From assembly GCA_008632985.1 (NCBI GenBank), contig QPGO01000057.1, positions 1 to 64,000 on the forward strand: a stretch of DNA of 64,000 nt. The letters are read 5' to 3'. This DNA comes from Psammoneis japonica. Its lineage: Eukaryota. The notes under the pieces are model-generated. The model searched no databases, was not told the origin of the DNA, and was given only the letters and a program-made list of their open reading frames with translations. Position numbers and translations under genes: made by a program. Of the stretch, positions 2,989-64,000 are shown one piece after another. Position 1 is the stretch's first letter, and every line of letters starts with the position of its first letter.

Positions 2989-4250
2989 TCACTTCACCCC
3001 CTCACCACAGTCTTCTGGCAAGGGACAACACTCATGGCAACAGACACATTCAATCTTTCCGTTTTCGGAACAGTCAGCCGCAGTGCAGGTCAGTTGGTGC
3101 TCAGTTCCTAAACAACACACTTCTGTTGGGACGTCTCCGGACAAGTCATTGTTGTAAAATGTAAACTCGTGCAGCTCCAACAGCTCACCAACCTTGGAAG
3201 GAACGCTTCCCATTAACTTGTTTTTGTGGATTCACAGTTCTTTCAGTGACACCAAATTGCCAATGGCATGAGGCAATGATCCCGAAAGTTAAAAATTGGT
3301 TTCCAGCTAGATTCATCTGTTGGAGGGAGGAGATCTCACTGCAGAGGGGTGGGATGGTGGATTCAAACTGATTTCCGACCAGATGCAAGCTTTCCAACGA
3401 GCTGAGCAGCTCCGTGTGTGGAAGAGACGAATGGAACTGGTTGTTGCTCAGCTGGACCCCTTTGAGTTCACGCAATTCATCAAACTTGTCAAGGACGGTT
3501 CCGGCAAAGTTGTTTCCAGCCAATGAAAACGTCTCCAAAAAAGAGCAAATAAAAATTGTCATCAGAACAGCTGAGTTGAGGCAGTTGTTTGACAAGTCAA
3601 GGTGCTTGAGCTCTGCAAGATGCCCAATGCTGGATGTGGTGTGAAGGAGACATGTGCAAGGAAAGAACAGGGAGAAGTGAGCGCAGGACAAGCACGCATT
3701 ATTTTAAGATGTGAAAGAACGAGGCATGGCTTGCCACGTTGATCGCGCACCTGAAAAATGGAACATCCTGTCACCTTGTGTTGAAAAGATGTCATTTGGG
3801 TCAAACGCTGAGCTCAGTGGGCATTTGGGTGCACCTTAACGCCACAGACAGGGCTTTCAAAGCATGGCGAAAAGCCCAGTTGGAAGGATTCATGTAGTCA
3901 GAAATCACACCGACCACAAAAGAGCTGGAAAAAGCTTCATCCACTGTTCGTTTTGAGCACCACTTAGAGCAACATCCAACAGATCGCACCTTGGTGATTG
4001 CGTGTCTGCGACGAGATGATGAGATTTCACAAACACATGCGTTCATGTTGTCACCGCTGCAGCAACACTCTCCAGTGAATCGTTCCGCAACAACATGCAA
4101 GAGCCAATGTGATGATGCCATGAACCCAATGACAAACAAAATTGCTCCCAAAAACACAGCGTTTGACTTGAGTGCTGGTCTAGTCTCCTGCGTGAAACGT
4201 TGGCTTGGCGCGGATGCAAAGCGACAGCTGCTTGCTCTCCACATTGCTCG
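2989..4250 (-). pseudogene. Decayed leucine-rich-repeat receptor-like gene (diatom LRR family)
   Basis: Fragments in several frames: LKHLDLSNN, FSLAGNNFAGT, LHLVGNQFESTIP and NNDLSGDVPTEVC, plus the C-terminal AADC...IECVCCHECC. Broken by frameshifts and stops; lies inside a TpA/CpG-depleted block. Confidence 0.75.
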
Positions 4251-5680
4251 TGTTTTTGTTTTCGATTCTTTTTAGGATTTCCATTTGCGCCAATGTTTCC
4301 TTTTTGGTTTTTTACAAGATCTTTCCCCTTTCATCCCAAGTGAGGACTGTGGCAACAGATTGCTCTGCCGGATGTCCTTGTGCATGCTCACCGTGAGTCA
4401 CTCGCTTTTTCCAGGCAGTGCATGTCCACCCATTTGTTTTGTTGTTGTGAATTTGTCTCACACAGAAATGTTCAAATCTAAGAATCATCAATCCAATCAC
4501 AGAAACAACTGCTCCAGGACTGTGCTGCACAAGTGAAGTGCAGCGGCCCAGCCCTTTTGCTTTGTTGTGGTTTGTGGTTGTCATCACTTCCTTCTTTCTT
4601 CGGCACAACATGAAAAGATTTTCGAAACTCCGGAGCTCATCGTTGGCATCATGCAGGCTTTTTTGCATTTCGGACCATTGCCGTAGAGATGCACAGGAAT
4701 TGGCAACAATTTGGAAAGTGCCAGTGCCCACCAACTTTCTGCACATGAAATCATGGTGACAGTTCTACAAAGACACACAAAAATGACAGTGATTGACAAA
4801 TTTAGCAATGGTCATGACTCAAAATCTCTGAGAATCCACACTCGTTTTTCACTCACAACTCGTCGTCTCGCACCATGTGCTTGTTGTTTGCCAAGCCGGA
4901 ATGCCATCATTGCCAAAGGATGGCTCGCCCTTCCTCTGGATTGAGACCTTGCATTTGTTTGGCATTCCACAACTCATTTTGCTTGATGGCATGTTGTCTC
5001 TCTTTTTTGACTCATCGTTTGCGGCACGACGTGTTTGTTGTTTGCCAAGCCGGAGCGCAGCAACACCCAAGGATGGCTCGCCCTTCCTCTGGCTCTGATT
5101 GCTTTCTCTTGTTTGGTGTTGCACAACATGTTTTGCTTGCATGAAGTGTTGTCTCCAGGCAGCGCAGGTGTTGCCAGTTGAGTCCGGAGGTCGGGGCAAA
5201 TCAAGTGCGTGTCTCCGGCCTGGAGTCCATGTTGCTCCTGTGTCTTTGACCGCAGGAAGTTGCCTGTTTGCTTGACCCGTCAGGTCATGGCTGTTGAAAC
5301 AGACAGCAGCGTTCGTCTGCGAAGCAGCAAAAGCTCGCCAAGCAGATCACACCGTTGACGGAACGCGGGGTTTGGGGTTCCGTCGCATCAGTGACATGAC
5401 ACGGCAAGTCTTCACTCGCAGGGAGTGTTGATTTAGCACGCGGTTGACTCGCAAGTTTCTCTTGCTGTCTCCGCAGTGCGTCCCCCCTTTTTCTTTTTTT
5501 TTGGGGTGGTTTTCCACCCCGAAAATAGGAAAAAGCTTGAGCTCCATTTTTTGATGGCGCTCTTGAGGCAATGTCACCCTGCGCGACCGATTTCTATCAA
5601 CTTTTGACATTGGCGTGTTTCAAATGTTCGAAACACACTTTGAACATTTGCAACAGAGAAGCAGAAAGACTAAAAGCACC
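2990..5680. repeat. TpA/CpG-depleted (TG/CA-rich) degenerate block 1
   Basis: TA is strongly depleted and CG reduced. Spurious Cys/His-rich ORFs. Contains a ~70 bp imperfect direct repeat (4871-4939 vs 5024-5092). Confidence 0.75.
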
Positions 5681-6093
5681 AGATGGCAATCTACATTTGT
5701 GCGCAATTTATTCCGTGCGCATGTCAATGGACTGCGATGGCGGTCGTAGCATGTTCTCGTTCTCGGCCCTCGTGCTCCATCGTCACGTCAAACACAAGGA
5801 TTGTGGCGTACAGTGCAGCGTACACCGGAGATTTTCAGTCACGTCGCGCTTGTGTACCTTGTAAGATAAGGTGTTGCCAGAAAGCTTTGTTTCGACAGAG
5901 TCTGTCAGAAGTAATTTGTCCGAAGAATGGACAGGTGTATTATCCTCGATTGGATAGAGTGGTTGACCGTTCATATAGCAAAACACAACACAACCTAGAA
6001 ATTAATTGTATGTATCCGAAGCCTTCATTCTACTAAGCAAGTAGAGGTGCCAATCAGGACTCTTAACTCATGAGCGCGTGTGCAAAACTGCCC

Positions 6094-7764: not shown

Positions 7765-7994
7765 ACTGAACACTGGAGCCAGCGTTATGTTCTTTGTAAA
7801 AAAACTGTATGGTAATACGGTATTACAGAAGTGTTATGAACAGCAGCAACGACACAACAAATTAGAGTCACCCGCGACACAATAACACAAACAACAAACA
7901 ACACTAACAATAAAAGCAAACACGACGCTCGACGCTGCGGATCGCTATGACGAATCGCCAAAAAATGAGCCGGAATCTTTGAATCCTTCGACTG

Positions 7995-18960: not shown

Positions 18961-19070
18961 AGCAGGATACAAGTAATATCACAGTAATACGGCCGTTCTC
19001 TCTCGATCTCTCCCTAGAGTAGAGCCAAAGGGATACCTAGAAATTCTTCAAAATCATATATCTTTCTAAC

Positions 19071-20694: not shown

Positions 20695-22975
20695 TTCAGA
20701 GAGGAGTCATTTTGGAGAAATCATTAATGACCGAGACAATGTCTGCACTCATCTGAACCGCCGACTGCTTGCAACAACAAATAGAGAAGTGTTGCAAGGG
20801 TGCGCCAAGCAGCTGCTCCTTGGATGTGCGGCAAGCCCCCCAGCTGCCTTTGGGCAGGAGCTCACAGAGGGGATTGTGACAACTTGCATTTTTTGATGTC
20901 CAGGCCTTGTCCAGGCACAAAACTCATGCACATTTTTCAGCGCAACTCCACTTGACAACTTTCAACATTTGTTGCGCAGATGTCTGCAGAGAGCAGCCAT
21001 GCCAAGCAGATCATCCAAGAGGAGCTCCAAACATGAAAAGGATCAGCAGAACAGCAAAAGCAGCTGTGCTTGTTTTGATGCCAAAGATGAGCATGTTCAT
21101 TGCCCACATGCACAAGCTCTGTGGATGAGCTCACCACACGGAATCTCATGGAAGACAAGTGCCCAAAACATTTCCACCTGGAGCTGCAAAAAGCACTGTC
21201 TTGTGTTGTGTGGCAGCGCGCCATTGTTGATGCCCCCTTCTCAGACTCACTCTCAGCAAAAATGTTGTCATGTCCAACAGAGCACAGCATGTCAAGCTGT
21301 GTCCTTGGCACTCGCCAAGAGCTGTTTGCCCCTCACCTTGTTGCTGCTTGCTTCTGGACAACAAGGGCGCACAAAGCCAAAGCTTGTGTTGATTCCTCCA
21401 GCCACAGACACACACTCTTTTCATGTTTTGCATGCCCCCAGCAGAGTTGGAGTGCAACACATCAAGCTGTGTCTTCACCAAGAGCTGTGTGTCCCTCATG
21501 TCACTCTGACAAGTTTGAGCACACACACGCCTGCACTGCGCAGTTCAAACCTGTGGCCCACAAAACCACGACCCAGCTAAAAAGGCTGTGTGATGTTTGC
21601 AGACCTGCATGTCAACAATGAATGGAGCACATCAGTGTGCAAATGTTGTGAATGTGCTGCACCTTTGAATTTTGCAGCCAACGCACATCCACAAATGCTG
21701 TTGACTGGGAGGTCTGTTTGCAGCTGGGCCAGGTGACATGTGAATCAACCTTTTTTAAGCAGTCACTTTTGCACCTGATGTCTGCCTGGCTTCCTGGTCA
21801 ATCAATGAAAAAAACCTCTTGGGGGAGCTTGGATCCTTGACCAGCAAACACACACATGATGTCACACCACCGCCGCCAATGCTGCAAACTTTGGCGCAGA
21901 TGCAACCTGGGCATTGGAGTTTTGATTGGATGCATGACAGAGCTTCAAAGCTCTGAAGCTTGGCTGGAGTGACACAAACCCTTTTTGGATCCCTGCTGAT
22001 TTTGCCATGCTTGGCAAACAGCACTGGCGGCTTTGAGAGGGAAAAATTCAATGGCGCACATCATCGGAAGTGGGGAAACAAAAGAAAAATGCAAACGGCT
22101 TTCTTGGTGCAGCAGAAAGAGCTGCTCAAAAGCCAGAATGACATGAGTGCTGAGCAAGCATCAAAGATGCATGTCAGTCAAAGAGCACTCTGCCCCGGCA
22201 CAATCTGCCTCACTTCAAACAACACTGGCTCCTCTGGCCAGCCAGTGGCCGCGGCTGTCAGGAGCCAAAGAAAGTTAAAAACACGTCCCAGCTCTGGGCA
22301 AAATCTTGCAGTGCTGGATGTGGACAGCAGTTTTTTGTCATGCACTGCACAAAAGTCAGTCACACTTTGAAGCACGCAACTTGACAACAAATCAAAGTGG
22401 CTCGCAGCACACTCTTGTTCCAGCTGTGTGCAGCAGCACAGTCATCAACCCAGCGAGTGGACACTGTGACAGCCAAAAGATCTGCAAAAGCACACTCTGC
22501 AGTGTCTGATGAATGTGCTGGGGAGCACATCTCATTGTCCTGCAAATGAGCATTTTTCTTGCACTGGTGTCGGTTCACTGCAAAAACAACTTCTTTGAGA
22601 CAAGGCAATTTTCTCGTTGTGCGGAGGAGCTGTCGTGTGCAAATTTGCACCAGCCACACATGTTTGTTTGAAAATGTCTTGCCCTGTCATGTTGAAGTCT
22701 CACCTGGGGCCAGAGTTTGCCCAAATGCCCTTGACACACAATTTGACAAAGTTGTTGGGGTCACGCGTTTGAGCTGTGCCAAAGCCACTTCTTGTGCACC
22801 TGTTGCCATCCCCGAGCACAACACACACAGAACTCACCAGACAGCAGAGACGTGCCCTTTGTGACAGTCTTGCAGTGGACCACTGAGCCATGCTGCGACT
22901 GCAGTGCTGTTGTCAGTGTTGAATCTCAAAAGAAAATGAGAACAAACTGTGAAGGCAACAGCTGATGACCGAAAG
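20695..22975. repeat. TpA/CpG-depleted degenerate block 2 (probable TE relic, family not identifiable)
   Basis: Hand count at 21001-21300: 0 TA and 3 CG in 300 bp. No intact ORF. Confidence 0.75.
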
Positions 22976-40727: not shown

Positions 40728-41521
40728 TCAACGGGATTTGTCAGTATCCGCGTCCGCATCTTTCTGTTGCTGGGCTCTTTCCATTCGTGCAAGCGCAGCC
40801 ATGCGTGCCCTTTCCCTCCGATCACTCAATTCATCTTGCCGCGGAGTGGATTTGGCAAAGAATTTGCTACCCAGTCCGCCTCCCTCGTCGCCTCCGAGTC
40901 GTGACCCTGCGCCTGAAAAACTTTGGATTTGTGGAGCAACAGGTGCACGCATATAGACACTACCGCCTTGACTTGATGAAGCATTCGGGTCTCCTACTGG
41001 TGCTGATTCTAGGAGCTTTTTGGGTAATAAACAAGAGCAGCACATGCCAATATCAGCCAGTCGATTCACGTGACCTGGAATGGATCTCCCCAGTAACTTC
41101 CAAACGAGTGCGTTGGCGAAGTGATTGCAGTTTTTGCGAATCAAATTATAGTCGTCAGGCCCAAAGTTACTTCGAAGTTCTGATATAGCTCTTTGCACTT
41201 CTGATTGGCCTCCGTCCAGCATGCCCATTTCAAGTGCCTCCCGGAACTTTGCTCCGGGTGCTTCTTTTGGTGCACTTTCAAAAACTCCCCCACCACTTGC
41301 AAAGCTATACTCGGTACCCATAATCTCTACTCCACTATGATGTAAGCCAAAACCAATGACATACAAAGCGTCGTTCGCCGGTGACAAGTCGTATATATTG
41401 AGAATTACTTTTGTGCCCTGTGAAACACATTGCATCACGTTCAAAAATTCAAAAGATGAAGCTGAGCTGCGCAGAAATTCAAATTGTCTTGCATTGGTTT
41501 CGATTCTCCCTACCGTACCAT
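40728..41521 (-). CDS. PPPDE/DeSI deubiquitinating/deSUMOylating peptidase
   Basis: VILNIYDL, GLHHSGVE (catalytic His) and YNLIRKNCNHF (catalytic Cys). Probable ATG-only first exon with intron 41418-41518. Confidence 0.92.
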
Positions 41522-41565
41522 GCGGGTCCTCCCTCCCTGATAACCACCTCCGAAACTCATTGTCT
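41093..41565. repeat. Direct repeat copy A (5' half of DeSI plus leader)
   Basis: Matches 51241-51713 at offset 10148 with only about 7 substitutions seen. Confidence 0.95.
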
Positions 41566-41744
41566 AGTAGAGAGTAGAGTCCGTCGATGCAGCGATGCAC
41601 ATTGAACATGTGCTTTTGACGCGCCGCTTCGCTGCGTTGCCGCTTCCTGCGCCGCCCAGCAATGCGCTGCGCGCCGCGGCTCGCGTTGTGGTAGGTGTCG
41701 ATCGTCGCGTCGTACTGTACGTTGTTGGGAGGTAGGTGGGGGGA

Positions 41745-44700: not shown

Positions 44701-46710
44701 GATGCATGTGCCGTGTTCAGCCACATCCAGCAAATGTTGATTTTCCACAACTGTTTGCCTTTGCAGCCAGACGCTGTGAACTGCTCCACAAGAAAGGCAT
44801 CATTGCCTCAGCATGGGTGCAGAGTTTGAGTGGGAGCCTGCAGTTTGACATCTCATCAGCAGCAGAAGTGCCACAGCAATTTGATCCAAGACTTCACAGC
44901 CAAGCAAGTTCCTGAACGTGTGGGGGTGCACCTTGAAAAGTTGCTCTGGAAGGCCCAGTTCCAACATGGTGATCTCATGTGCCAGTGGCATCTCTTTGCC
45001 TGTCATTGATGGTGAGTCAATCTGCTGCAGGAAGGCACCTCCAATTTTAAGAGACCTTGTGCAACATGCAGCAGCTCTCCAATTCCCAGCCTGCTGCACT
45101 TGTGGGGGGAACACCCAGCCTTCTTCTGAAATGATCTTGGATGTCCAAGGTGTGGCAGGGCTGCCCTGGAAGGGGTTTTCAATCTCCAAACAACATTCTT
45201 TTCTTGCAAGAAATGCAGCTGTCAGTGGGTGCTCAACAGACCACATTGTTCCTCCTGTCAGTGACATCCATGAATCGTCCGCACAGTTGAGATGTCCGCT
45301 CCTGAATTGATCTGCCCATTTCTCAACTTTCTTCTTGCATGCATTGCAGGCACCTGTGCATCAGAGGATCCGTCCATTGCAACCCATGCTCTCCCAAGGT
45401 TTCCCAAGCTTCAGCAACTTCAAGATGATCAACAATCACCCAGTTTCTTTTGTGGCCCAAGATGGAGATGTTCCCTGGTGTGTCCTCAACAGTTTGGTTG
45501 TGCCATCAATCATTTTTCCAATCAAATGCTGCCAGCATCTAGAAGCTTTTTTCTGGGCAAGAGCACCTCCCGTGGCACAAATTCCACCTTCCCAGCAGCA
45601 ATCAGACATGTCTTGAAGACCTGAGACTGCTGCTTTGCAAGTTGCACCCTTGTCCTGGAAAACGCATGGCAGATCTGGATTGTCAACAAACATGTGGCAC
45701 ACATGGTGGAAAACTCCTTGCATGGAAATTAGAGTTTCCACATGAGTGCCACACCCTTCAGCTCTTGGCATGTTGACAACTTGAATGCTCACAATCAAGC
45801 AGCCAGATGGCAGGTGCTGCACCGTGTTGTCCTTGGAAGATGCATTGGGGCAGGATTTTGACAGCTGACACAATGCTGGATCTGCTGCTGAAAAAGCTCT
45901 GATCATTGCATGGACCATGTCCTCTCCTGCTCCATGAAATCTCAAGCAGATGGCTGCAATGGCACACAGAATCCTGACACCACAGTGCATGACTTTGCAT
46001 CTGCACTGTTGATGCCCCCTGGTCTGTGCACTTGATGAAACACATGTCTCCTGTCAAAAACCTTGTTCAAGGCACAAAAATTTGCTTTGTGATGTTTCCA
46101 ACTGCCACACACTTCCCATTGAACAGCCTGGCAGATTTCTGCTTGATTCATGACAAGTGCTCTCCTGCAGTGCTTGTTCATCTGATTGAACATTGCATCA
46201 AACAGAACTGTCATCTGCAGTTTCTTGACATGAGCAGCAGAGCCCATCTTCTTTGGCGTCATTGCATTGATGGCTTTCATCCAGCAGCTCCTCAGGGCAC
46301 ATCTGTGCTTTGCAGGCATGGCTGCCATGCTTTGCAATCAGCAAAGGATGGTCCAAAAGAACTGCTTGATGCCCCTCCTGACCCTGCGGCTCATGCCCAC
46401 CTGAGTTTTTGTTTTGTGTCATGTTGTCCACATCACATCTCTGACAACTGTGCCAGCTTCACAGCTGTTGTTTAGACTTGCCATCTTTTTTCCAGCACCA
46501 GAGCTGGAGTTTTCCCGCGACAGTCAAGATCCATGACTTTCTGCATTTTCCATCTTTTGCCATGAGATCTTGGATCTCCCAAGATTTTTCAACAGCCAAT
46601 GATGTCAGCTGCACTCACAGCCATTGAAAATCTTTTTTTGATCTTTTTGGCTTGGAAAAAACAGCCTGTGGCACTGATGAGCGAAAGGGATGGCTCACAT
46701 CAAAAGCACC
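41745..46710 (-). mobile_element. Decayed non-LTR retrotransposon (RT + RNase H + C-terminal Zn-knuckle; Ambal-like), TpA/CpG-depleted block 4
   Basis: Minus-strand relics in the expected order: SADAKSC, QGQHGAAPAIWL, MFVDNPDL, RLGIGELLHVAQG, LELGLP, VDRSF, IKGHRD, WGKTESPVCPRC and RWAPSLVARLWDMW. Confidence 0.75.
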
Positions 46711-46877
46711 CCTACAATTTCATTTCCGCTCGCATCCACAACATTGTTTCTACAGAAAACACAAAAAAATCGATATTTTGAGAACTTAAGTAGTTTGAGG
46801 TACACCATGCAACTCGCCTCGGGTGGGTGGGCACTTACGGACAGAGGCAACCTTGACGATGTCAACAATTTCAAATT

Positions 46878-49800
46878 TTAACGCCCAGCAAAGGTTGTGA
46901 GGGAACAGACAAGAGGCACTACCTTCGTCGACATTGTTTCTACGATCTTGCGTCCGTTCAAGTCCGGAAGCTCCAGGACGCATCCAAAACCCGTGACGGA
47001 CCCTCCTTGGCGTTGTACAAGCTTGAGGATAGCTCCCGCGGTGGCACCCGTGGCGAGGCAGTCGTCAATAATTACCACTCGAGAATTCGGGAGAACGGAA
47101 CCAGCCACCATTTGGAACGAAGAGGAAGAGTCGTCAGATGGATCACGAATGGTGGCGATGTTGTCCTCATTCCGGGTGTTGCCACGGCCTTCTTTCTCCA
47201 GTCGGCTCATGTTGGAGCCCTCGTAGTCAACTTCCACAACGCGACCTGGTATCTTGCCAGCTTTGCGCACGTGCACCAGAGGAATCTCAAGCAAACTTGC
47301 CACGGGACTGGCAAAGGCAAATCCCAATGCCTCGGGGGCGACAATCGCGTCGGCCGCAATCTTGTGGCGTCGAATCCAATCTACAAAAAGACGTGTGCAC
47401 AATGGCAGCCCAAACGGTTGTAGCAATAGACCACCAACAAGGTCTTTGTACACAATACCAGGCGTGGGTGTATCGTGAATCTGGCGAACACTTAGCTTCA
47501 AAAGCGCAGGTAAAAGATTTTCCTTTACGCATTCCTTGGCCGAACTGATAGTGGAATCGGAGTCGTTCTGGTATACAAAGTCCCAAAAGCAAGCCTCCTG
47601 GCGGTCCGCGTGGCCCTCTCCCGTAGATTTGTCGATTGTCAGGTTTGGGATCCAACCACGAGAACGCTTTGATTCCTCTGTTGCGTCAACCTTGACGAGA
47701 ATGACAAGACGACCCGGCACCTGCCGGGCGTATTCCAGACCGTCACGCATGCCGGTCAAGAGTACAATACCTTGTTTGCATGTTTGAACAGTTTCCAAAA
47801 AGCAATTGGCATCGTAGGAAGGATTGGATGTTTTCTTGGCTTCGTAGAAGTTGGTGAGAGCGACGCGGTGAGATTCCTTGTAGGGGCGGTCTTGCATCAG
47901 CAGTTTGAGATCAACGCCAGGAGTTTCGGCCGCAAAGGCACGCTTCGTTGCGTCACTAATGGAGACGATACAGGCCGCCGTCTTGTCACCAACAAGTTCT
48001 CGGATAGTTTCTTCTGCGACGCGAGCTAGCCAGTCCTTGCCCACAAAACGCCGGCCGCAAAAGATGACAAGCGCACCTCGATTCGCAACCGGTGCATCTT
48101 TGGTGTTATCTGCGCCAGGTCCGCCCAAAAGGGGGCAGCCACAGCTAAGAACATTCATTGGATCACGTTGCCGCTTCATCTTGGCGAGCAGGGAACGTTG
48201 CTCACCAAAGGCCAATTTAGCCAACCGGTGGTCGGAAGGACCTAAATCCGATCCATAGACCCCAGACGAGTACGGCAGAAGCTGGTTCGTGGTCATGTCA
48301 ACCCATCGTGATGTTGCTGACGCGAGATCGAGGTCGCCGTCCGGATAACGGCCAGTAATCACGGCAGCAAACTCCCAGTTGCGGCATCCAAAGGCAGTTT
48401 CTGCGGAAGCGACTTTCTTCACAGCGCCGCCCCCATGAAGAAAGTGAACGTACGACGTTTTGGTTGGCGCAGAGCGCATGGCACTCACGAAGATAGAACC
48501 GCAACGCTTGTCCAGTGAAGGGAACAACAGGCAGCGCTTGACTGATCTCAGCTTCTTGGGGACTTTGGTGCCGGGGGCTACAGTTCGTTCTGCCTCGAAG
48601 TGGCGAGTCATGTACAGCTCTCGGTCGAACAGCTCTGACGGCGTGTACAAACTTGGTTCTTGCTGAAGAGGGGGGTCGGGAGACGCGCAAAGTGCGGGAG
48701 ACGCAACGACAACGTTCTCGACTGCATCGCCAGAAGTATCGAAGAGACTGGTGCCAAAAGCGAGGTCTTTGCAGCTCGACCAAAACAGATATCCGTCCAG
48801 ACACGCCGTGTCGGGTAACAAACAAGCTCCTTCGGCATAGCTTGGTAGAACAAGCCCTTCAGTTTCGGTCATGTTGGAGAATTTGTACAAGGTATCTTTC
48901 GCCGCAATTACCTCAAGCTTGTGGGCCGTCAAAGTTACCTCGAGTACCACTCCAAAATTCGTCCCAGCACCACGAAACGGCAGAAGCTCATCGAGAGTCT
49001 CGGCAACTTGAAGCTCACCGGTGGGACTAATGTACTTAACCCGAATTATGTTGTCGCATGCCAGGCCGTACCTGCGCATAAGATGGTTCAATCCGCCTTG
49101 AAGAATAAGGCCCATACCGACACCTGGACGGTCACCGAGAGGCACCACTAAATTGTATTTCTCGCATTCTTGAGTAATATCTCCCAAGGTCGCTCCTCCA
49201 CCAACCTCAACTGTAGAGGTGTCAGGGTTGACCTTGACGTATTTCCAAAGTCCCATGTCGATGGCAATCGCATCGTTGGCAATGCAGAAAGCTTTGTGTC
49301 CGCCACCGACGACAGAGACTTGCCCGCACCCAAGCGAGCGACGACATGCAGCCTTCAACCCTGCCTTAATCCCGGCGATGGAGTTCGGTTTTAACACAGC
49401 TGCAGGACGCTTATCCCTGACTGCGAAGTTCACTTTGCGCTGACAGTCACCCGTTCCACGAGGTTCGATGGCGATGCAGCCCATGGTCCGCTTGAAGCTG
49501 CGACATTCGCCATGTTCCGGTACCTCACCTCCAGTGTATCGGGAAAGGCGAACCCGTTCTTCGGAGCTAATCTGACTCAAGTCCAGGTCGACATCGAAAA
49601 GCTGGAAGTCATAAAGGATGGACGAAGACTCGAGAAAGTTGCAAAGCTCTCTCAGTGTTCCACCTTTGCTCCATCGATGAATGACAATGAGAATTCCTCC
49701 GGCAGCGACAAAGTTGAGAGAATTACGAAGGAGTTCCTCTTTTGATGCATTGCCATACAGTGAATGACTTCAGAGAACGATGTCGGCCTGGCAACAGGTT

Positions 49801-50912
49801 TCGTCTGGGCGGGTGCTTGTCGAGAAGGCGTGATCTCGGATGGATGAGTTTCCTTCATGCAATCCCAAGCTCGAGGCCGTCGTTTTGAGCCCTTCACACA
49901 GTTCTTTATCTTGCTCAAACGCCGTATAATTGGAAACTGTTTGTTTCGAGCACAATCGTTTCAGGAGTGCACCGTTACCGGCCCCAATATCCAAAATTGA
50001 AACGCCGCCTTTCTTGCGGGCCAATGGTCCGTCTATGTAGTCCTGAATGACACCGGTGATGGCAGAGAATTCCTCTTCAGCGCAAGACTGGTAAAGTATG
50101 TAGTCTTGGGCCTCAGAGGGAGCTGGGACGGACGTTTCAGTCGTTTTGAGTGAAGGTGGAAGGCTCTTCGTCGAAGCGACCCCTGTTGCAGTTTTCTCAC
50201 AGGCTGCACAGAAGTTCTCGTAGTCTGTCAGCTTTGATGGATTCCTACGAAAGGCCTGAAGCTGAAAGTTGTGCCATTCATAGGGGTCGGTTAGAAAGAT
50301 GCCGCATTTTGCGGTCGTTACTGTCTCAGCTTCCGTCTTTTGAACCCCTCGCATCGCCATGCACAAGTGTGTACATTCCATGATGACGGCCACACCTCTT
50401 GGGTCTAAAACTGTTTGGATCCCTTCCATGATTTCCCTTGTCAGCCTCTCTTGCACCTGCAGCCGACGCGCGAAAAGATCCACAATGCGCCCAAGTTTGG
50501 ATAGTCCAATGACTCTGCTGCTCTTGGGAACGTACGCGATGTGCACCTTTCCATAGAAGGGTACGGTGTGATGCTCGCAAAGGGAATGCACGGCAATATT
50601 CCGCTCAACGACCATCTCATCAGACACAGTGTCATCGGGAAAGACTGCATCACCTACCACTTGTTGCACTATTTGATCGTAGCCTTGTGTGAAGAAGGAA
50701 AAGGCCCTAGCAAACCGTTTGGGCGTGTCGACGAGTCCTGGGCGGCGGAAGTCTTCCCCGGGAAGAGTTTCCAAGATCGTGGAGAAGGCTGCGGCGCGAC
50801 GGCTTTCTTCCGGCGACAGGGACGAAGGGTCGCCATCACCATCACTGAAGCCGTCACAAAAACTTGAAGAGGCGTTGCGACGGGAGAAAGCCTCTGAAGC
50901 GTCGATCGGCAT
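46878..50912 (-). CDS. Five-domain fusion enzyme: GTP cyclohydrolase I - SAM methyltransferase - FAD/BBE oxidoreductase - phosphomevalonate-kinase-like - APRT-type PRTase, with in-frame TGA at 49770-49772
   Basis: GCH1: SLCEHH, GLSK, RLQVQERLT, HLCMAMRG. MTase: ILDIGAGNG, DIVL*SHSLY. FAD: VVGGGH, GLACDNI, RGAGTNFGVV, KRQRDPMNVL. P-loop: GRRFVGKDW, DRPYKESHR. PRT: VRKAGKIPG, IIDDCLATGAT. The two predicted ORFs are in the same frame with 63 open codons between them. Confidence 0.88.
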
Positions 50913-51240
50913 GCTGTTAAAATAAAATGATGTGGTACAAAAAATCGAAGAAGATGAATGAATGGGATCTGCTCCGTCCTCGACCAATCAAGCTTCACCT
51001 GAAAATTTGCAAGTACGTGGACATTTTTACTATTCCCGCCACATACTCGGTTCAAAAGCGCAACTTGAAACTGGATCGAACCAACATAGTGCGGCGGCAG
51101 CGCGCTGCTCCCACATCTCACGTATCGGCTGGATGTAGCCGCAACGTGTCCCAGCAACTCCCATACTTGTCGGAGTCCTGTCACGAACTAGAGCAATCGA
51201 ATGATGAGCTTTGCATAGAAAGTAGAAAGGGTGGCCGCCG

Positions 51241-51713
51241 GTAGCTTCCAAACGAGTGCGTTGGCAAAGTGATTGCAGTTTTTGCGAATCAAATTATAGT
51301 CGTCAGGCCCAAAGTCACTTCGAAGTTCTGATATAGCTCTTTGCACTTCTGATTGGCCTCCGTCCAGCATGCCCATTTCAAGTGCCTCCCGGAACTTTGC
51401 TCCGGGTGCTTCTTTTGGTGCACTTTCAAAAACTCCCCCACCACTTGCAAAGCTATATTCGGTACCCATAATCTCTACTCCACTATGATGTAAGCCAAAA
51501 CCAATGACATACAAAGCGTCGTTCGCTGGTGACAAGTCGTATATATTGAGAATTACTTTTGTACCCTGTGAAACACATTGCATCACGTTCAAAAATTCAA
51601 AAGATGAAGCTGAGCTGCGCAGAAATTCAAATTGTCTTGCATCGGTTTCGATTCTCCCTACCGTACCATGCGGGTCCTCCCTCCCTGATAACCACCTCCG
51701 AAACTCATTGTCT
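51241..51713 (-). pseudogene. Truncated duplicate of DeSI (direct repeat copy B)
   Basis: Near-identical to 41093-41565. Identity stops after NCNHFANALVWKL, and the frame runs into unrelated sequence (stop at 51188). Confidence 0.92.
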
Positions 51714-52119
51714 CTATCGATAGGCCGTCGATGCAAGTGTTATGTCGATCGCTTCCTGCCGCTTCTTATTGCCGCTCGCATTGAGCATGGCTCGTCGCTC
51801 GCGTCATTGTGCGTTGTCATGCGCATTGCGCATCAGAGACAGCAAACAGACAGGCACCCGGAGCGGAGCCGGATGCTGATCACAAGCTTGGGATTCCACA
51901 GCACCTTGAAACTGTCGCTCTCTATCATAGGACCCCACTCTCTAGTAGCTCTAGAGAGTATGTTAGCAGAGGGGCCTATTAGTTTCAGTCAATATTGTGT
52001 TCGTCCGCATGTTTTTTTAAATACTTTCTACTCTATCTGCAAGAGTTTACAAGCGTTCTTTTCAATTACTGCGGTAGGTTGTTGGGGATCCCTCCTCACG
52101 TAGCAGAATCAGAGGTGCG

Positions 52120-53715: not shown

Positions 53716-54039
53716 GACGGGGGACGAGAGATGTTTCAGGGATCAGATTCGTTCCTTCTTGTGTGATCCCTTTCCTCCCGCTTATCTTCTGTCTAGCACT
53801 ACCGGTATCATCTATCGGTGCAGGTTCAATCTGCCGTGTGGTGTGGTGAGGTGTGGTAGTAGATGGAGGTTCTCAGTTCATGGTGGTGACGGTGGGTTGC
53901 GGTGCGCAATCGTCGTCGCAGTCGAAGCCAACACGAAAATCCTTCTCCTACACAGTTCCCAGTACAAATTCTACATGAAAAAACCCGGATGTGGACACTT
54001 TTTGGACACTCCTGGACACAAGGTTAGCTAACTACTTTA

Positions 54040-54425
54040 CACTTGAAACAGTCACAGCTCCTTGCTCTCGTCATCCAACTCAAAAGATGACACAGCAAAG
54101 CATTGTGGCGAGGTCAAGTTGGCAAAAAGTTTGCATCCCACATGGTGAAAAAGCACACATGTCTTTGAGCCACAGGAAGCAGGCGCACTTTCCACTTCAA
54201 TCAAAGCTTTGTTCAGTCCGTGGAAATCTGGTGCCCAGAGCGCTCAACTGCCCTTCATCACAGCAGGGGCTGCAAAGGTTCCAGCCATCTGCTCAGCTGG
54301 CCCACACAGTTGCCACACACCTGCACCCTCCAAAAGCTTCAGAGCTTCTGCTTGAGCACCTCCTTGTGAGAAACAGAGTGACGAGGTTTTGAGGGGCGGC
54401 AAGGAACAGCACTTTCTCCAGCCCC
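54040..54425 (-). mobile_element. Ty3/Gypsy reverse transcriptase fragment, copy 1 (decayed)
   Basis: Minus-strand relics HKEVLKQKL, DFHGLNKAL and KLFA(N/K)LDL...(E)LDDESKEL, matching the Gypsy RT N-terminal DFRxLN and KLDxxxxYY motifs. Confidence 0.65.
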
Positions 54426-55619
54426 CAAATGAGTGCGCCTTTTTCTGCCGTGTGGTGTGGTGGAAGATGGAGGTTCATGGTGGTGGTGGCGGTGGTGGTG
54501 AGCAGCGCAGCTGTTCTTGTCATGGTGGTCCAATGAAGACAGGCCCTTTTTGCGTGAAACAAAAATGCGCGTCGGCGACGTGACACAAAAATTGACTTTT
54601 TTTGTCACACATGCACCCAGCCAATCGACGATGCAAATGAGAAAGCAACTCGCCATCAACGAGGTTGCTGCCAACAATGCACATCATCAAAAGACTGTGC
54701 TGCATGCATTGCATGGACTTGTGGGGTCTTTCGTTTGAGGAAATTGGTGCGGTGTTCACGACAAAAAGTGTGGATTTGCACGCATTTTGTTGGCTTGAAA
54801 AAAAAAAACAATGGCACGCTGTTGACAAATTGGTTGCCGTTGTCATCAATGAGTGCCACCTCACATGTCATTTGCTTCAAATCCATTCTTTGTTTGGTCC
54901 ACCCACCAGATGTCAATTTTGTGGAGGTAGAATCACATTTCAGGGGACTGTGGGTTGACAATGATTTTTGAAACAATTGCAGGAACATCTTCGACAATCG
55001 TGTTGATTCAGAGACATTTGCAACAGTGACATCAAGAAATGGAAACAACTTGTCCATGAGGCAATGGGCATTTTGGGGGATGACACATGTCTGCATGCCA
55101 ATGGCAAAAGTTGGAAAGCTGTGCCCTGCTTGCACCACCTGTGACGCTGACATTCCGTGCCGCTGGACATTCTGTGGCTGGCTCCTTTGCTGCCTTCAAT
55201 TTGGAGAGACCAAGTCGGAAATTTGAAGGAGAATGAGGGCTGTCATGAGGAGAGCTGGATTGAGAGGAGGAGATGGCAAATGTGCCACTTTTTCAAGGGC
55301 TGATGACAAGGCATTGATCAATTTGTTGAAGCACGACAAACTGTGGTCATGTCCAAATGAAATCCAGCTCTGTTCATGAGACAGAAACTTGGCAAAGTCT
55401 GGCATGCAAGCACAATTTGACACAGGATTTGTCATCTTAGACACACTTTGTAGAGTTTGGTTTTGTGAGCAGCAAACACATTTAGAAAAAATTGCACGCA
55501 ATGCATGTCAACTGGCAGACATGAATGATTGGGCATGCATTGACTGCTGCAGCATGCGCATGTCAGAAACCCACAGCCCAGAAGCACAGCACACTGATGA
55601 TGTCCCCCAAAGCCCATGC

Positions 55620-56000
55620 TGAAGCCTCGTCCCCTTGTTGTGAGCCAAAGCCAACACCTGGGCTGACACCTCATCCTGCCCCCAAGCCAATGCCCTGCCC
55701 TGCCCATGCCCCACACCCAGGCTGATGCCATGCACTCCCAAGCCAACACCATGCTCCACACCTGAGCTGACACCACACCCGATGCCTCACACCTCACACC
55801 ACCCCCAAGCTGACACCATCCCCTGCACCAGGGCTGTTGCCACATTCCCAACACCTTGCACCACTCCCAAGCCAATGTCATGCCCCACACCTGAGACACC
55901 TGAGCTGGCACCACATGCTTCACACCACTCCTGAGCTGGCACCATGCCCCACACCCAAGCCAACACCACACCCAATGCTTCACACTGCTCCCAAGCCAAC
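55620..56000 (+). repeat. Degenerate minisatellite encoding Pro/Thr repeats (PTPKPTP.. / PTPELTP..)
   Basis: Recurring cccaagccaacacc, cacacctgagctg and ccatgccccacacc units. Confidence 0.8.
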
Positions 56001-57039
56001 ATTTTTTGATGGTGGGTGGGGGGCAACTCACAATCAGCCTTCAACATGTGCTCATTGATGGCTTTGACAACTTCGTTGAACTCTGAATCAATGGTGAGAA
56101 GCATGGTGTCAAAGAGGCTTTCATCTTGAGTGCAAATGGAAGTGCTGAATTTGGGTGTGGAATCCCATGAAACCTGTCACAAACAAAGGAAAGACACAGA
56201 TGCCTCTGCCAGTTGTTCTTTTGTGTGCTTGAGACCACAGATTTCTTGGCTGTTGCTGTTGGATGGGGCATTGGAGTTGCAAGATGCATGTGCAGACCAG
56301 CCAAGAGGTTTCTTGAGGTGTTTTCATCCTCTCTTCTTTTCAAGCACTCAGACAATTCCTTGCTGGAAATGGAGGACACAGACAAGACAGTCAAGTTGTC
56401 ATGCAAATGAGATTGAGGCTGATTGCTCTCACTGGTGCTGCAAGATGCAGACTGAGCCTTGTGCTTCTTGGAAGCAGCTTGTGCTGCTTTCTCATTTTTG
56501 TCCCCCAACATCTTTGCTTCACTTGGATGACTGGCACATTTGCTTTGTTTCTTTGGAGGCAATTCAGGCACTTGTGTGTCAACTTTCCATGCAAACACAG
56601 AACAGATCCAGTGCACACAATGAGTGAGGCTGCACTTGTTGTGATGGCAACAACCAATTTGTCAGCACCATGCCTCCAATTCCAAGCCAAAACACAATCC
56701 ATGAAAATCCACACTTTTCTTTGTAAATGTGGCACCGCTTTTGTCAAACAAAGAACCCCACAAGTCCAGATGACAGCCGCGGACTTACAATTTACAATGG
56801 CGCGCATCATTCACAGCAGTGGTGTTTGTGAAGGTGCTGTTTATTGTCTCATTTGTAAGGTCATGTGTCTTCAACAAAAAATCATTTTTTGTGTGAAGAC
56901 ACAGCCACACATTTTGATGTTGTTTTGCAGAAAAATCTGCATCCTTTGTGTGTTGTGTGTTGTTTGTCATGCTTTTGTGCACATGCACATGCTGTGCACT
57001 GTGCTGGCTGCTCTGCTGGTGGTGGCAGACTGCCTTTGC

Positions 57040-57430
57040 ACTTGAAAGAGTTGCAGCTCCTTGCTTCATCTCATCATCAAACTCAAAGATGACACAGCAA
57101 AGCATTGTGGTGAGGTCAAGTTTGGCAAAAAGTTTGCAGCCCACATGGTGAAAAAGCAAACATGCTGTTGAGCCACAGGAAGCAGGTGCACTTGCAGCTC
57201 AATCAAAGCTTTGCTCATCCCACATGCCCAGTGTGCTCAACTGCCCTGTCTCCTTCATCACAGGGGTTGCAAAGGTTCCAGCCATTCACTCAGTTGGGCC
57301 ACACAGTTGCAGCACACTTGCACCCTCCAATTGCTTCAGAGCTTCTGCTCTCCTCTTGAATGCTTCTTGGCTTGCTTGTGAGAAACAGAGTGAGGTTTTG
57401 AGTGGCACGGGACAGCACTTTCTTCAGCTT
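57040..57430 (-). mobile_element. Ty3/Gypsy reverse transcriptase fragment, copy 2 (decayed)
   Basis: Homologous to 54040-54425. Reads GCKLFAKLDLTTMLCCVIFEFDDE. Confidence 0.65.
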
Positions 57431-60400
57431 TCAACTGCACCTTTTTGTGTGGACAGTGTGGCCCAGTGTGCCATTGAACAGTGCACTGTGCTTCTCCAGA
57501 GCAGCTCTCAGCTGCTTCTCTTTCTCTGCTCCTCTGTCAGATGGCCCAAACTCTTGGCTGCATTTTCAGTGCCACACACCAGCTGTGGGACTTGGGCCAG
57601 TGGCTTGGCTCCTTCATTGGAGTCACCTTGTCCAAAAACCAGGCAGAGAGGTTGAGAGTTTTGCAGTTGACATTTGAAGCAATTTTGCCAAAGAAATTGG
57701 ACCCCAAAATTGCATTGTGGACAAAGAGCAAATCAAAAAAACATTTTCTGTGATTCCATCAATCTGTCATGGCTTGTCAATTCTGGCAGGGCAACATCAC
57801 TGAGTGACACCCAGCATTCTGACAGGGACTCTCCCTTGACTGTTTGAAAGCAATGAGTTTCTTCTTCACTGATCCATGAAGCTGCACCATGTTGTGTGAC
57901 ACATTGTTGGAACTGACAGCAGTGTGTGCAAAGTGCCAGAGTCAAGTGCTGCATGTGTTGGGTTTAAGATGATTCTTGAAGCTGACCAGCTCTCTCCACT
58001 GGCAGCAAAGCACAGATGATGCAAAACAGCACAGTCAAGAAACCTGTTGCCCCCCCCCCCCCCTGTCATTTTCACAAAACTGGCTGCAGCTTCTTTCAAA
58101 GTGGGTCAGCAGCAGAGTCATGACACAAATTTTTGTCACACAATTTGCCAGCAGATTGCTTGGAAAAGCAGCTCAAAGCAGGCTTTAAAACAGACAGACA
58201 ACTTTCTGTGTCCTCCAAACCTGCACCTGCCCCTGTCACCATGACCTCCTTGGCCACTGCTGCCATGACCACTGATTTCCACACGGCCTTCATTTTCACA
58301 CCTCAACAGTTTGGATCATTTGGACAGCTGCATTGCACCCCCACACATGACATCCTTTTGTCACCCAGACATTTTCCAGAGGCTGTCCTTGGCTGAACTC
58401 ACAATGCAGAAAATGAAAAGCACACTGTTTTGTGGTTTCCCTTTGGTCTGGCAGCAAACCCCCACTTGCATGCAGGCAAGACTTTGCTGACTGGTTGGTG
58501 TTGGATCTGCAAACCCACATGGGCATCAAGAAGAGACATCTTTGCCAGTGTGTGGCAAAAACAAGCAAAAAAGGAGCCATGAGAGCAACAACAGCCCAAC
58601 ACTGGAATTGGCAATGGCAGTGGGCAAAGCAAGCATGGTGAACATGGACAAGGCAAGAGAGGAGCAGCAAGGTCAGCCCAAACCAGATGACTTTCCATGC
58701 AATCAACAATGCAAGCAGCAGTTGTGGTTCAACGGGGCTCCTCCTGCAGAGTGCACTCAATGCAACATTCAACCATTTTGGTTCAACAAGTGTTGTGCAA
58801 ACTGTCTTCAAAATTGCCAAACAACAACTCTGGACAGTGGTTGTGAACTGTGGTTCGTGCAAAAAGCAACCTTGCAAAACCAGTTTTCAACATGCAGCAA
58901 TGCTTCAACTCCAGGTTGGCCTGCAAAAATTGGACAAGGGCAAGTGTGGTCATGTGCAACCCATTGTCATGCCCCCCCCCACCTTGGCTTGCATTCTCAA
59001 GCAAAAAAAATTGAGCATTTCATCTTGTGCTCAAAGCAAGTGGTCTCCAAGGCAGCCTGTGGTGCATGACTCACATTGTACAAGTGCTGTTTGGCAATCA
59101 ACAACAAAGACAAATGCAGAAACTGTTTCACTCCAAGGAAGCTGCACACATGGCTGGCAGCCAAATCAAGAATTTGAGTTCAAGAGCTGCAGCATTGCAA
59201 GTTTTGAGACCAAACAAGTGCTGCTCTTTGTCGCCAATGTCGCGGGCACAATTGCAAATTTCTTGTCCTCTTCTTTGGGCCCAGCTTTCAACCGGAGTCT
59301 CAGCCCACAATCTTGCCAACTGGCAAGTGGCTAAATCTCACAATGATGCCTGATGGACAAGCCCTCAATGCTCATTTCCCAGGGTGCTGGTTCCTCAATG
59401 AGGGTGCTTGCTTTCAACAATCTCAGGCCTGCGCCAGAGCGGCACAAATCCAAGAACAAGAGAAACCCCAGCTGGAGGGTTCAAACAGGCACATGTGTGC
59501 ATGTGTGTGTGTTCAGAAATCTGCTTGGCCTCAGAATGTGAGTGCAAGAAAGCTGGCACATTGGAGGTCATTGGCCAAAGCAAAGCTTGTGCCAGCCATT
59601 TGTGAGCACATGCAGGAAGTGCTTGGCAACAAACAGGGGCCATCATTTGTTGTGCAAAAAACTGTTGTGACAAGCATTTTGCCTGTTCCACAACTTCAAG
59701 AGCACGCAGTTAGCTTTTGATTGCAAGACCAGCAGCACGCTCAAATCAAGCACCCCGCAAATGTCGCAAGGTGTGCAAGCCACTCTCCAAGTCATTTCAG
59801 GCAGCACCAGCAGCACACAGTGGTGCCGAGACAGGCTGGTTGTTCTTGAGATTGCTTTGGCCACACTGCCAGTGTTGCTGGACAGAGGCAAGTGGTGCGG
59901 CAGTGCTGAAATGATCAGTTTTGCCCCTGAATCTGAGTCAACTGATTTTCTCTCTTCAACAGCTTCGCTCCAATCTGAGTCAACCACTTTTCTCTTTTGG
60001 GCAGTTTGTGCTTTGAAGGTGTCACAAACAATGATGAAAGGAACAAGCCACTGCAATGACCGCAGTTGCAGTGCAAGGTCTGGCTTGGCAAAGACTGGAC
60101 ACTAAAGAGAATTTTGTGAGGAGAGAGGATGGATCGCTGATGAACCCTTCCAACGTATCCGTTACATTGTTGCAATGTAATCGCGGCTGACTGCCGGCAT
60201 ATGTATGTACAGACACTACAGCAGACTACTGTATGGTCGGCCAATCGGCGAGAATCGAATTATTGAGGGAATTTTCAGAAATCTATATGCAATGTGACAT
60301 TCCGTATGTTAACAACGTGTCGCAACTTTCCGTGCCGGCGACTTCGTCGTCATTGTTCCTGCAGTTATTGCACCAATGGTTCAACTCCATTTCCTCATGT

Positions 60401-62351: not shown

Positions 62352-62489
62352 GCAGCTATATTCGGCATCAAGCCTTTTCTTGTTTTCTCACAGAACCGGG
62401 TATTTCTTTAGGAGTGAGTGATTGCGAGCACACAATTTAATGATTGACTTTATAGCGTTTCTTTCATTAAAAAAAACTACTACGACTCA

Positions 62490-64000
62490 TGTTGTCTTCA
62501 GAATTACCTCCCTCACCGTCATCATTTGAAACATCTCTGCGCAAAAAGAAAAACACAAGTTTGCCGCCGGGGCAGACGGGCCAGTTTTGGTCATTGGTCA
62601 CATGCGCTCTGACATGGCGTGCTTTTGGTGGCATGGAGCCCAAAGAAGTGAGAGCTGCTCAAACTCATTTCAAAAAATGAGAGCAGAGTGCTTGCAGCTG
62701 TTGTGTGTGCTGCCATCATGATGACACAACTCACCAGCAGATTTGCTTGACCCATTCAACCACTGACTGCACACTCAAAAATCAACAACAACAAAATCAA
62801 CAACAACAAGTGGTGGTGACCATGTCATTGAGCACCTTGACAGAAAACCTCCCTGACCCCACCACAACCACCAAAGTGGAACATGTCAACTGGACAAATG
62901 CTGCTGTTGCACCATTTTGGCTGAGCAGCCTCTGGGAGTGTTCTTGTGTGTAACATCATTGTTTTGTGATGTGGTCATGACAAATTGTCAACCATGTTGT
63001 TTGGCACTCACTGGTGTGTTGATCTTCATTTTAGCAACAGCAGCCATGATGAATCTGAAGACAATGGGCTGTGGAGATCTGAAAAAATGGTGGCACTCAC
63101 TCAGCCTGTCCTTCCATCAGATGATGTGTCAAAAATCCCAAAACGCAATGGCGCTGTTGTGACACACACCATTCATCAGACAGACATGTCCCTTGTGATG
63201 GACAATGGCAGTGCAGGGCTTGTTGACTGTCACAGTGAGTGTGATGCCCACTTGTGTGGTTGTCAGAACTGAGCTGAGGGCAAAGGTTAGCACAGCTTTG
63301 ATCCTTTGCCCAGTTGCTTGAAGCAGAGGCAAAAACAGCTTGACCATGGAGCTGTTCTCTGCACTGCATGATGTTGAAAAGGATGGAAATGACACCACTG
63401 CATTGTTGTTGTCATGCAACAACTTGTGCAGGCTTTGCTCCACTTGTGATGCTTGTGCTGAGCGGCAGCTTGTGAGCCACACTGTGACATTTCAGGGAAC
63501 TTGCTGTTGGGCATGCTTGGAGCAGATTCATGTGATTCAAGTCTGAAACAAAAACAACAACAACAATGACAACAACCAAAACCACAGCAACAACAATGAC
63601 ACAACAAGCAGCTCTTTGCAAGTTGCCATGGCATGCTTTTCTCTGGTGTGCTCTTGTGCTGCAATGAAATTTGCTGCTTTTTTGTGTTCATGTTGGGGTC
63701 ATGTGTCTTTTGCTCAGCATGGCATTCACATGACACAAGTTGCTGGTGCCCTTGGATTGCTCCATCTTGCCACCCCATGTGGAGCAGCAGATTTGTTTGA
63801 ATCATGGAAGTTGTGATGCTTTTTCAACATCATCTTTTTGCAGGGGGCACAGTGCTCAACTGGCTGGACATTGGCAAGGATTTTGCCCATGTTTTGGAAA
63901 GAGATCATTTCACACCCTGTCAATGCTTCCATGTTCTGGTCCAGGCATGTGCATGATGAGCAGAGCAGCACCATTCTTGGAGGCCACAAGTCCATGAATG
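62490..64000. repeat. TpA/CpG-depleted degenerate block 6 with (CAA)n tracts; runs off the window end
   Basis: Almost no TA or CG. caacaacaa tracts near 62783-62808 and 63548-63607. Confidence 0.75.

Follow-up and report, generated by a model that had tools for sequence, protein, structure and literature searches.

Six blocks of a 64,000-nt stretch of the diatom Psammoneis japonica (contig QPGO01000057.1, positions 1 to 64,000; hereafter the window) have lost nearly all of their TpA and most of their CpG dinucleotides, and are correspondingly rich in TpG and CpA. An original prediction, made from the sequence alone, had noted TA/CG-eroded blocks, and that observation is confirmed here. The erosion consists of in-place, bounded and TpA-specific A:T to G:C transitions on both strands, accompanied by a slower decay of CpG to TpG/CpA. 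We consider it probable that it reflects a region-restricted, enzyme-driven A:T to G:C hypermutation at TpA, joined by the slower CpG decay, in the nuclear DNA of a diatom.

Six blocks depleted in TpA and CpG

In a 500-nt sliding table, the observed/expected ratio (o/e) falls to 0-0.18 for TA and 0-0.8 for CG in six stretches, where TG/CA reach 1.5-2.6 at a G+C content of ~0.48. Six segments were called by a two-state dinucleotide hidden Markov model (HMM) and total 20,343 nt, or 31.8% of the window (Table 1). Their bounds lie within ~100-370 nt of those originally predicted, and the earlier local counts (0 TA and 3 CG at 21001-21300; 14 TA and 16 CG at 15901-16200) proved exact. Pooled counts, which use provisional bounds covering 20,670 nt, give 64 TA (o/e 0.05), 326 CG (0.27), 2284 TG (1.77) and 2306 CA (1.79) in the blocks, versus 1694 TA (0.59), 2509 CG (0.99), 2982 TG (1.13) and 3139 CA (1.13) in the 43,330 nt outside. 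The G+C content is 0.488 in the blocks versus 0.483 outside. AA and TT are undepleted (o/e 1.26 and 1.24 in the blocks, 1.15 and 1.16 outside), and the blocks have an o/e of 0.96 for TC and 0.91 for CC. Across blocks 2-6 the CG o/e ranges from 0.12 to 0.36. Block 1 is weaker, with a TA o/e of 0.12 and a CG o/e of 0.63 over 2990-5500, about one third of its CG being gone.

The largest gaps between successive TA measure 1241, 1109 and 1059 nt; at the TA density outside the blocks (0.0389 per site), a gap of 1241 nt has a probability of ~4e-22. Mononucleotide shuffles of three blocks contained 271+/-14, 611+/-19 and 757+/-22 TA plus CG, versus 39, 62 and 76 observed. This is a 7-10-fold excess over the real sequence, and none of the 200 shuffles per block came close. 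The block edges are sharp, with TA and CG back within ~10-60 nt. Non-block DNA without long open reading frames (ORFs; 16 pieces, 7531 nt) has a TA o/e of 0.69 and a CG o/e of 1.01. Because this ORF-poor DNA keeps both dinucleotides, the block pattern is not a general drift of non-coding sequence. The constant sum of TA, CG, TG and CA (241 vs 238 per kb) was dropped as evidence, since a purine content of ~50% gives ~250 per kb anyway.

Survival of individual sites, computed over blocks 2-6, depends on the flanking bases. TpA persists at ~0.5% of RTAY sites, ~4% of RTAR/YTAY sites and ~22% of YTAR sites (38% for TTAA), and CpG at ~14% of WCGW and ~38% of SCGS sites (56% for GCGC). In each block TG and CA balance one another and follow in random order (runs z -1.6 to +0.2), consistent with a palindromic duplex target that can be attacked on either strand; the same runs test of the blocks shows no strand-coordinated clusters.

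In a forward model, TA (95%) and CG (78%) of ordinary window DNA were randomly converted to TG/CA; its 256 tetranucleotide frequencies then correlated with those of the blocks at 0.96, up from 0.67. For the 164 words that contain neither TA nor CG, the correlation rose from 0.54 to 0.89. The modelled sequence carried TG and CA at 110 and 114 per kb, versus 113 and 114 observed. This fit supports in-place conversion.

One sample (S1) has three public sequencing runs, one of which behaves like DNA (X1) and one like RNA (X2). X1 contigs traverse an intron and the blocks, at a depth of 61-70 in blocks versus 47-55 over genes. One such contig matches block 5 over 4060 nt (53998-58057) with 2 differences, and another spans the right edge of this block into normal DNA. 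X1 may be the assembly's own data, and so supports the reads rather than representing an independent isolate. Inside the blocks, X1 and the window differ at the residual TA at 43749, 45049 and 56843, and between CG and TG/CA at 7 places, in both directions; in block 4, 8 of the 10 substitutions are transitions at CG, TA, TG or CA steps. An X2 contig lacks 53192-53272, an 81-nt GT-AG intron on the minus strand, and few introns are evident in the gene-dense window. The X2 pieces listed all map to genes, and block interiors have none, a lack of cover that says nothing on expression.

A young tract of TpA transitions beside block 4

The process is also seen at an early stage, in a fusion gene next to block 4 whose relatives, of ~1300 amino acids, are diatom-like metagenome and transcriptome proteins and one Mesostigma protein. 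S1 holds another copy of this gene, and over 47272-50320 the window differs from the X1 and X2 contigs at 23 places: 18 at TpA, 2 where CG has become TG, and 3 others. These places wholly explain the difference counts of the two contigs concerned (8 and 16). Ten of the TpA changes are TA to TG (A>G) and eight are TA to CA (T>C), and the two kinds are interleaved.

TpA positions, 5.5% of the tract, carry 18 of the 23 differences (P 6e-19). Changes struck 18 of the 168 A/T positions inside TpA versus 1 of 1279 elsewhere (P 1e-16, odds ratio 153). Under the same contigs, 0 of 20 and 0 of 27 flanking TpA are changed (P 6e-3 and 9e-4), and the 9176 nt covered by three further contigs contain 3 differences. 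By context, ten of the young changes are at RTAY, six at half-sites, two at YTAR and none at TTAA. A half-site asymmetry of 4 vs 3 among the 18 changes gives no pointer to the target base.

Per site, TpA was lost 23-fold more often than CpG (18/84 versus 2/213, P 4e-9), and TpA loss precedes CpG loss in block 1, which shows mostly TA loss, as well as in the young tract. The earlier description of a double erosion thus holds in that both dinucleotides disappear, but the two are not equal partners.

To polarise the changes we aligned 25 homologues of the fusion protein. Eleven of the 18 TpA changes replace an amino acid and 7 are synonymous, which indicates that the protein was not spared. At 7 of the 11 replacement sites the homologues have a clear preference, and in 7/7 it is for the TA-encoded residue of the window. 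Tyr505 is Tyr in 25/25 homologues, residues 327 and 733 are Tyr or Phe, and at Thr199, Ser248, Ile198 and Asn338 the homologues likewise favour the window residue. The residue of the other copy occurs in no homologue at 6 sites, and is nowhere commoner than that of the window. Since the homologues side with the window, TA is ancestral and TG/CA derived; the erosion is mutational, directional (TA to TG/CA) and recent. Taken together, the tract differences and the homologue polarity bear out the proposal of a second process, distinct from CpG decay, that turns A:T into G:C within TpA on either strand and ends in TG/CA. X1 has C and X2 has T at 49175 and 49178, so that both states are present in one sample.

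Contents of the blocks and other features of the window

Table 1. Positions of the eroded blocks, the young tract and the repeats in the window
Feature	Position	Strand	Description
Block 1	3169..5309	-	HMM segment; four consecutive minus-strand ORFs, the first a leucine-rich repeat (LRR) protein relic
Block 2	20787..22966		3 TA and 36 CG in 2180 nt; without purine/pyrimidine period-3 signal and without Pfam domain
Block 3	33246..36826		15 TA and 75 CG in 3581 nt
Block 4	41756..46712		11 TA and 51 CG in 4957 nt
Block 5	54040..60102		14 TA and 62 CG in 6063 nt; internal repeats
Block 6	62580..64000		3 TA and 5 CG in 1421 nt; runs past the window end
Host gene of the tract	46878..50987	-	Fusion of GTP cyclohydrolase I, S-adenosylmethionine (SAM) methyltransferase, FAD_binding_4, phosphomevalonate kinase and phosphoribosyltransferase
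Young tract	47457..50320		Window versus other copy in S1: 18 of 79 TpA changed; 2.9 kb
Direct duplication, left copy	41090..41591	+	Part of a PPPDE peptidase gene; 21 TA and 21 CG kept
Direct duplication, right copy	51238..51735	+	21 TA and 21 CG kept; ~10.1 kb from left copy
Direct repeat of block 5, copy A	54035..54422	+	390 nt; 79% identical to copy B; CA/TG double differences
Direct repeat of block 5, copy B	57034..57428	+	Partner of copy A
Degenerate tandem units, block 5	55645..56003	+	Units of ~64 nt

At least one of the blocks, block 1, is a ruined host-type gene. The first of its ORFs has clear Pfam matches to LRR_1, LRR_4 and LRR_8. The four ORFs together contain 1 Tyr in 647 amino acids, versus 2.2% Tyr in the window's other proteins, and their Cys and His content is about twice the usual. 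Low Tyr with high Cys and His is the expected outcome of TAY changing to TGY/CAY. A homologue search intended to polarise block 1 gave no match at 94-301 amino acids, and the best 150 matches were only generic LRR proteins at 28-37% identity.

We scanned 162 stop-to-stop block ORFs of at least 70 amino acids against Pfam, 150 of them at E<=0.01 and the other 12, plus 23 repeated, at E<=0.5. The sole domain matches were the LRR matches of block 1 and a sub-threshold match in block 6. In the latter, an ORF at 63415-63687 on the minus strand has a synaptobrevin-like C-terminus (E 3e-4, 21 bits, under the Pfam cut-off of 26.4) and may, from this similarity, be another gene relic. Long ORFs are expected by chance in the blocks, because TAA and TAG cannot occur there. 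Purine/pyrimidine period-3 power is likewise absent from blocks 4, 5 and 6. The 33301-35700 region of block 3 has a weak signal of this kind, at 4-7 times background and with no Pfam match, which suggests once-coding DNA. Searches for Rfam families and tRNAs found neither.

No likeness between blocks was detected by BLASTN, nor by a self-BLAST after purine/pyrimidine recoding, which exposes copies that differ only by transitions and which returned only the known repeats and the 0.5-kb gene duplication. At the six block bounds we found no terminal inverted or direct repeats and no target-site duplications. Non-autonomous or indel-ridden elements may nonetheless be the origin of some block DNA.

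Repeats inside the blocks retain further traces of the process. Adjacent CA/TG double transitions number 3 in the 390-nt pair of block 5, 3 in a 154-nt repeat of block 1 (beyond which a tandem-repeat search of the window yielded nothing further) and 2 in an inverted pair. One pair of block 5 tandem units, aligned over 143 columns, has 30 transitions and 7 transversions, and its CA/TG double differences number 10. Copies that resolved an ancestral TA or CG independently of one another would be expected to show such double differences.

The direct duplication on either side of block 4 and the fusion gene is 96.6% identical over 502 nt and 98.3% over its first 476 nt (41090-41565 and 51238-51713). 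Only transitions occur among its 8 differences within these 476 nt, and 6 of the 8 fall on CG/TA to TG/CA steps. X1 merges both copies in one contig at a depth of 102, which is double.

Two observations concern block 4. Its left ~0.6 kb (41800-42340) is CT-rich and of low complexity, with very numerous partial contigs (summed depth 1056 versus ~60) and many internal skips, and is a multi-copy or length-variable sequence family. Contigs of the sample also depart from the window at 42338 and 46701, near the block edges, into unlike DNA, in which TA is present in the case of the 42338 contig. These departures suggest a structural difference between copies at block 4.

Between the blocks lie eukaryotic genes with hardly any introns. 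One of them, a glycerol kinase at 6094-7833 on the minus strand, is closest to proteins of the diatoms Odontella aurita (67%) and Eucampia antarctica (61%). It has few diatom matches (58-68%), and its best matches otherwise are bacterial GlpK proteins at 51-57% identity. Judging from these similarities, diatoms may owe this gene to bacteria.

Mechanism, rival explanations and known mutation systems

An odds ratio of 153 for TpA, together with TpA loss outpacing CpG loss, points to an enzyme that reads the duplex palindrome, and not to spontaneous chemistry or polymerase error. We hypothesize that such an enzyme would convert the A:T pairs of palindromic TpA to G:C within discrete domains of 2-6 kb, choosing the strand at random so that TA becomes TG or CA. 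It would prefer RTAY, act worst on TTAA and run near to completion. CpG in the same domains would decay more slowly to TG/CA, most simply through deamination of 5-methylcytosine (5mC) in silenced, methylated chromatin, and the quicker loss of A/T-flanked CpG fits 5mC deamination. The end state would be DNA free of TA and nearly free of CG at an unchanged G+C content. Neither tyrosine nor TAA or TAG can be encoded in such DNA, so that any gene inside is destroyed.

The chemistry that we prefer, tentatively and with considerable doubt, starts from adenine or N6-methyladenine at TpA, which would be deaminated to hypoxanthine and then read as G; N6-methyladenine would in that case be deposited at TpA in parallel to 5mC at CpG. 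The sharp bounds, and a tract confined within one gene, suggest a domain signal based on homology, transcripts or chromatin units rather than diffuse spread. Diatom DNMT4 is an obvious candidate partner; a published survey describes it as related to fungal RID, of unknown function and present in 23 centric and 8 pennate species of 60 diatoms (PMC9998398). That diatoms own a duplex-DNA editor of this kind, a mirror of repeat-induced point mutation (RIP) that turns A:T into G:C at TpA in marked chromatin, by deaminating adenine or N6-methyladenine or by oxidising thymine, as a G+C-neutral defence or means of gene extinction, is a real possibility which we would not yet call probable.

Several observations weigh against an enzyme-driven, RIP-like defence. 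The original prediction took silenced repeats to be the targets, a view that is not supported, whether for repeats or for transposons: none of the 162 block ORFs carries a transposon domain, the blocks are unlike one another, and block 1 is an LRR relic. Read depth in the blocks is near that of single-copy DNA, though many partial contigs match at 85-95% identity. The duplication has stayed intact, and a short linked duplicate is thus either insufficient to trigger erosion or too young; a repeat-induced trigger gains no support from these observations. In the 390-nt repeat pair the ratio of transitions to transversions is 34:32, so ordinary divergence is mixed in. A single young tract was seen. 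The TA losses listed for it all fall on the X1 side, with 0 in the window copy, a one-sidedness that, in a small sample, would suit an episodic local event. One contig of the mutated copy runs 1254 nt beyond 46701 into sequence unlike block 4, and the mutated copy may be a second allele or a paralogue. The window copy of the fusion gene is itself damaged, with an in-frame TGA at 49770-49772 (TGG in the other copy, and read through in relatives), W747C and L833H, none of them at TpA; the locus may therefore be decaying for other reasons. Five metagenome loci of relatives (29,112 nt in total, one of them short) contain no block, and are too little to gauge distribution. We infer, moreover, the enzyme, the targeting rule, the silenced or methylated state of the domains and a RIP-like role in genome defence alike.

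Other explanations account for parts of the pattern. At a palindrome, an A to G change looks the same in sequence as one from T to C, and in the main alternative the same regional process has the thymine of TpA as its target, which would be oxidised by a TET/JBP-type enzyme to 5-hydroxymethyluracil or 5-formyluracil, mispair with G and change to C. In dinoflagellates, TpA and TpC are enriched in 5-hydroxymethyluracil, and 5-formyluracil pairs with G. To our knowledge neither a TET/JBP-type enzyme nor an oxidised thymine base is known in diatoms, and the near-normal TC and CC ratios of the blocks reveal no effect at TpC; we regard thymine oxidation as unlikely. Collateral damage from repair is quite unlikely. 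Here, deamination of 5mC at CpG would call in patch repair, and an error-prone polymerase (DNA polymerase (Pol) eta-like, acting at WA) or a T:G to C:G repair bias like that of Vsr would alter nearby TA, giving both erosions one cause and explaining why CpG outlasts TA. The specificity is too sharp for this (18/168 versus 1/1279 A/T positions), AA and TT are undepleted although the WA motif includes AA, and the young tract has 18 TA changes with just 2 at CpG. Biased repair of T:G mismatches, one of the mechanisms first proposed, is a weak candidate, since it should protect CpG, which is instead lost. Pol eta mutagenesis at WA motifs was rejected as a candidate in its own right on the AA/TT ratios and the same position counts.

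The sharp bounds would also suit insertions of mobile or foreign DNA whose composition was already of this kind on arrival, for example RNA edited from A to I at UA and then reverse transcribed, and the contig departures near the edges of block 4 suggest presence/absence variation. The same change is, however, seen in place inside a resident gene, and TG and CA intermingle with no bias to either strand, whereas editing of RNA should leave one class per copy. With no reverse transcriptase, integrase or transposase domain in the 162 ORFs, no terminal repeats or target duplications, and a host-type gene relic as block 1, insertion is decidedly unlikely. Two related candidates were rejected: hypermutation derived from RNA editing, on the interleaved 10 A>G and 8 T>C changes of the tract, the balanced blocks and the lack of a reverse transcriptase, and relics of transposable elements, as far as elements with recognisable domains or ends are concerned, on the same domain and repeat searches. 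Selection against TA and CG as motifs read by a nuclease, by an RNA-decay pathway (UpA/CpG) or by a DNA-binding protein has a precedent, in that one study describes how selection moderately suppresses CpG and UpA together in cytoplasmic RNAs and RNA viruses (PMC3829696). The depletion observed here is near-total over kilobases, mostly without coding periodicity, and 11 of the 18 young changes alter amino acids, several of them conserved, the opposite of fitness-preserving change; selection is very improbable. An artefact of sequencing or assembly, with modified bases misread or errors introduced by polishing, is extremely improbable, even though X1 was possibly used to build or polish the assembly. 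Each former TA or CG site is a fixed TG or CA in k-mer contigs of ~60x, which rules out strand-specific misreading of modified bases (this would give mixtures), and the TA states of the window in the tract match conserved residues.

If enzyme-driven hypermutation at TpA is the correct explanation, it would be a second, chemically different programmed point-mutation defence in eukaryotes, in a major group of phytoplankton. It would give a function to seek in orphan diatom enzymes (DNMT4, deaminases, dioxygenases), and for base-editing technology a naturally occurring activity that changes A:T to G:C specifically at TpA in chromosomes would be of direct interest. The partly changed fusion gene would mean that the process can destroy resident genes, and so act as a force in diatom genome evolution and allelic divergence. 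Were it the work of an editor, targeted DNA would, with the help of 5mC decay, end with TG/CA only and lose its tyrosine codons, its TAA and TAG stops and its TA-containing signals, and scans for RIP or isochores would be blind to it. Block DNA is in any case G+C-neutral, largely unique and free of TAA and TAG, so that it yields long spurious ORFs, can mislead gene prediction and eludes repeat maskers and RIP indices. We found no account of a joint TpA and CpG erosion of genomic blocks in the literature, of which our coverage was incomplete, so an earlier description is possible; within that coverage, the view that the TpA process lacks a mechanistic description stands.

The nearest known system is RIP in Neurospora and other ascomycetes (RID, DIM-2), which creates TpA from CpA/TpG by C:G to T:A transitions, mainly at CpA, lowers G+C and requires a duplication above a threshold of ~0.4-1 kb. 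It depends on an enzyme of the RID/DNMT4 type and takes place before meiosis. Both processes are regional and sharply bounded, wreck coding sequence by context-specific transitions and saturate to a dinucleotide signature, and both can leave an adjoining gene partly changed, as in the 2.9-kb tract beside block 4. The direction is opposite, as first predicted: TpA is destroyed in a polarised change from TA to TG/CA, TG/CA accumulates at constant G+C, and the mutated pair is A:T, not C:G. RIP indices are accordingly inverted relative to the usual thresholds, with a TpA/ApT of 0.06 in the blocks vs 0.63 outside and a (CpA+TpG)/(ApC+GpT) of 1.96 vs 1.22. Unlike in RIP, changes do not form strand-coordinated runs, and as to a duplication trigger, both copies of the 98.3% identical 476-nt duplicate still have 21 TA and the blocks are mutually unlike.

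The decay of CpG in methylated DNA of vertebrates and plants, and under DNMT5 in Cryptococcus and algae, resembles the second component of the pattern in turning CG into TG/CA, more strongly at A/T-flanked CpG, with a silent state presumed here. It accounts only for the slower half, and we know of no 5mC pathway that removes TpA. Vsr repair in Escherichia coli, which according to Bhagwat and McClelland in 1992 reportedly erodes CTAG to CCAG/CTGG, likewise changes words containing TA into CA or TG as a by-product of handling 5mC deamination. Vsr acts genome-wide, mildly and in one pentanucleotide context, whereas here all TpA contexts are affected, within domains only and near completion, and CpG is unprotected.

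Enzyme-made clustered transitions are also produced by APOBEC, which changes C to U, by ADAR, which prefers a 5' U and changes A to I, and by Pol eta, which mutates WA motifs in immunoglobulin genes; ADAR and TadA-type deaminases share with the present process a preference for A after U/T. These editing systems are strand-specific and work on RNA, cDNA or single strands, whereas the changes described here are on both strands, in place and chromosomal, and spare AA. Targeted point mutation of DNA is thus a known kind of process, and there is a fair chance that the chemistry in these diatom blocks is categorically new.

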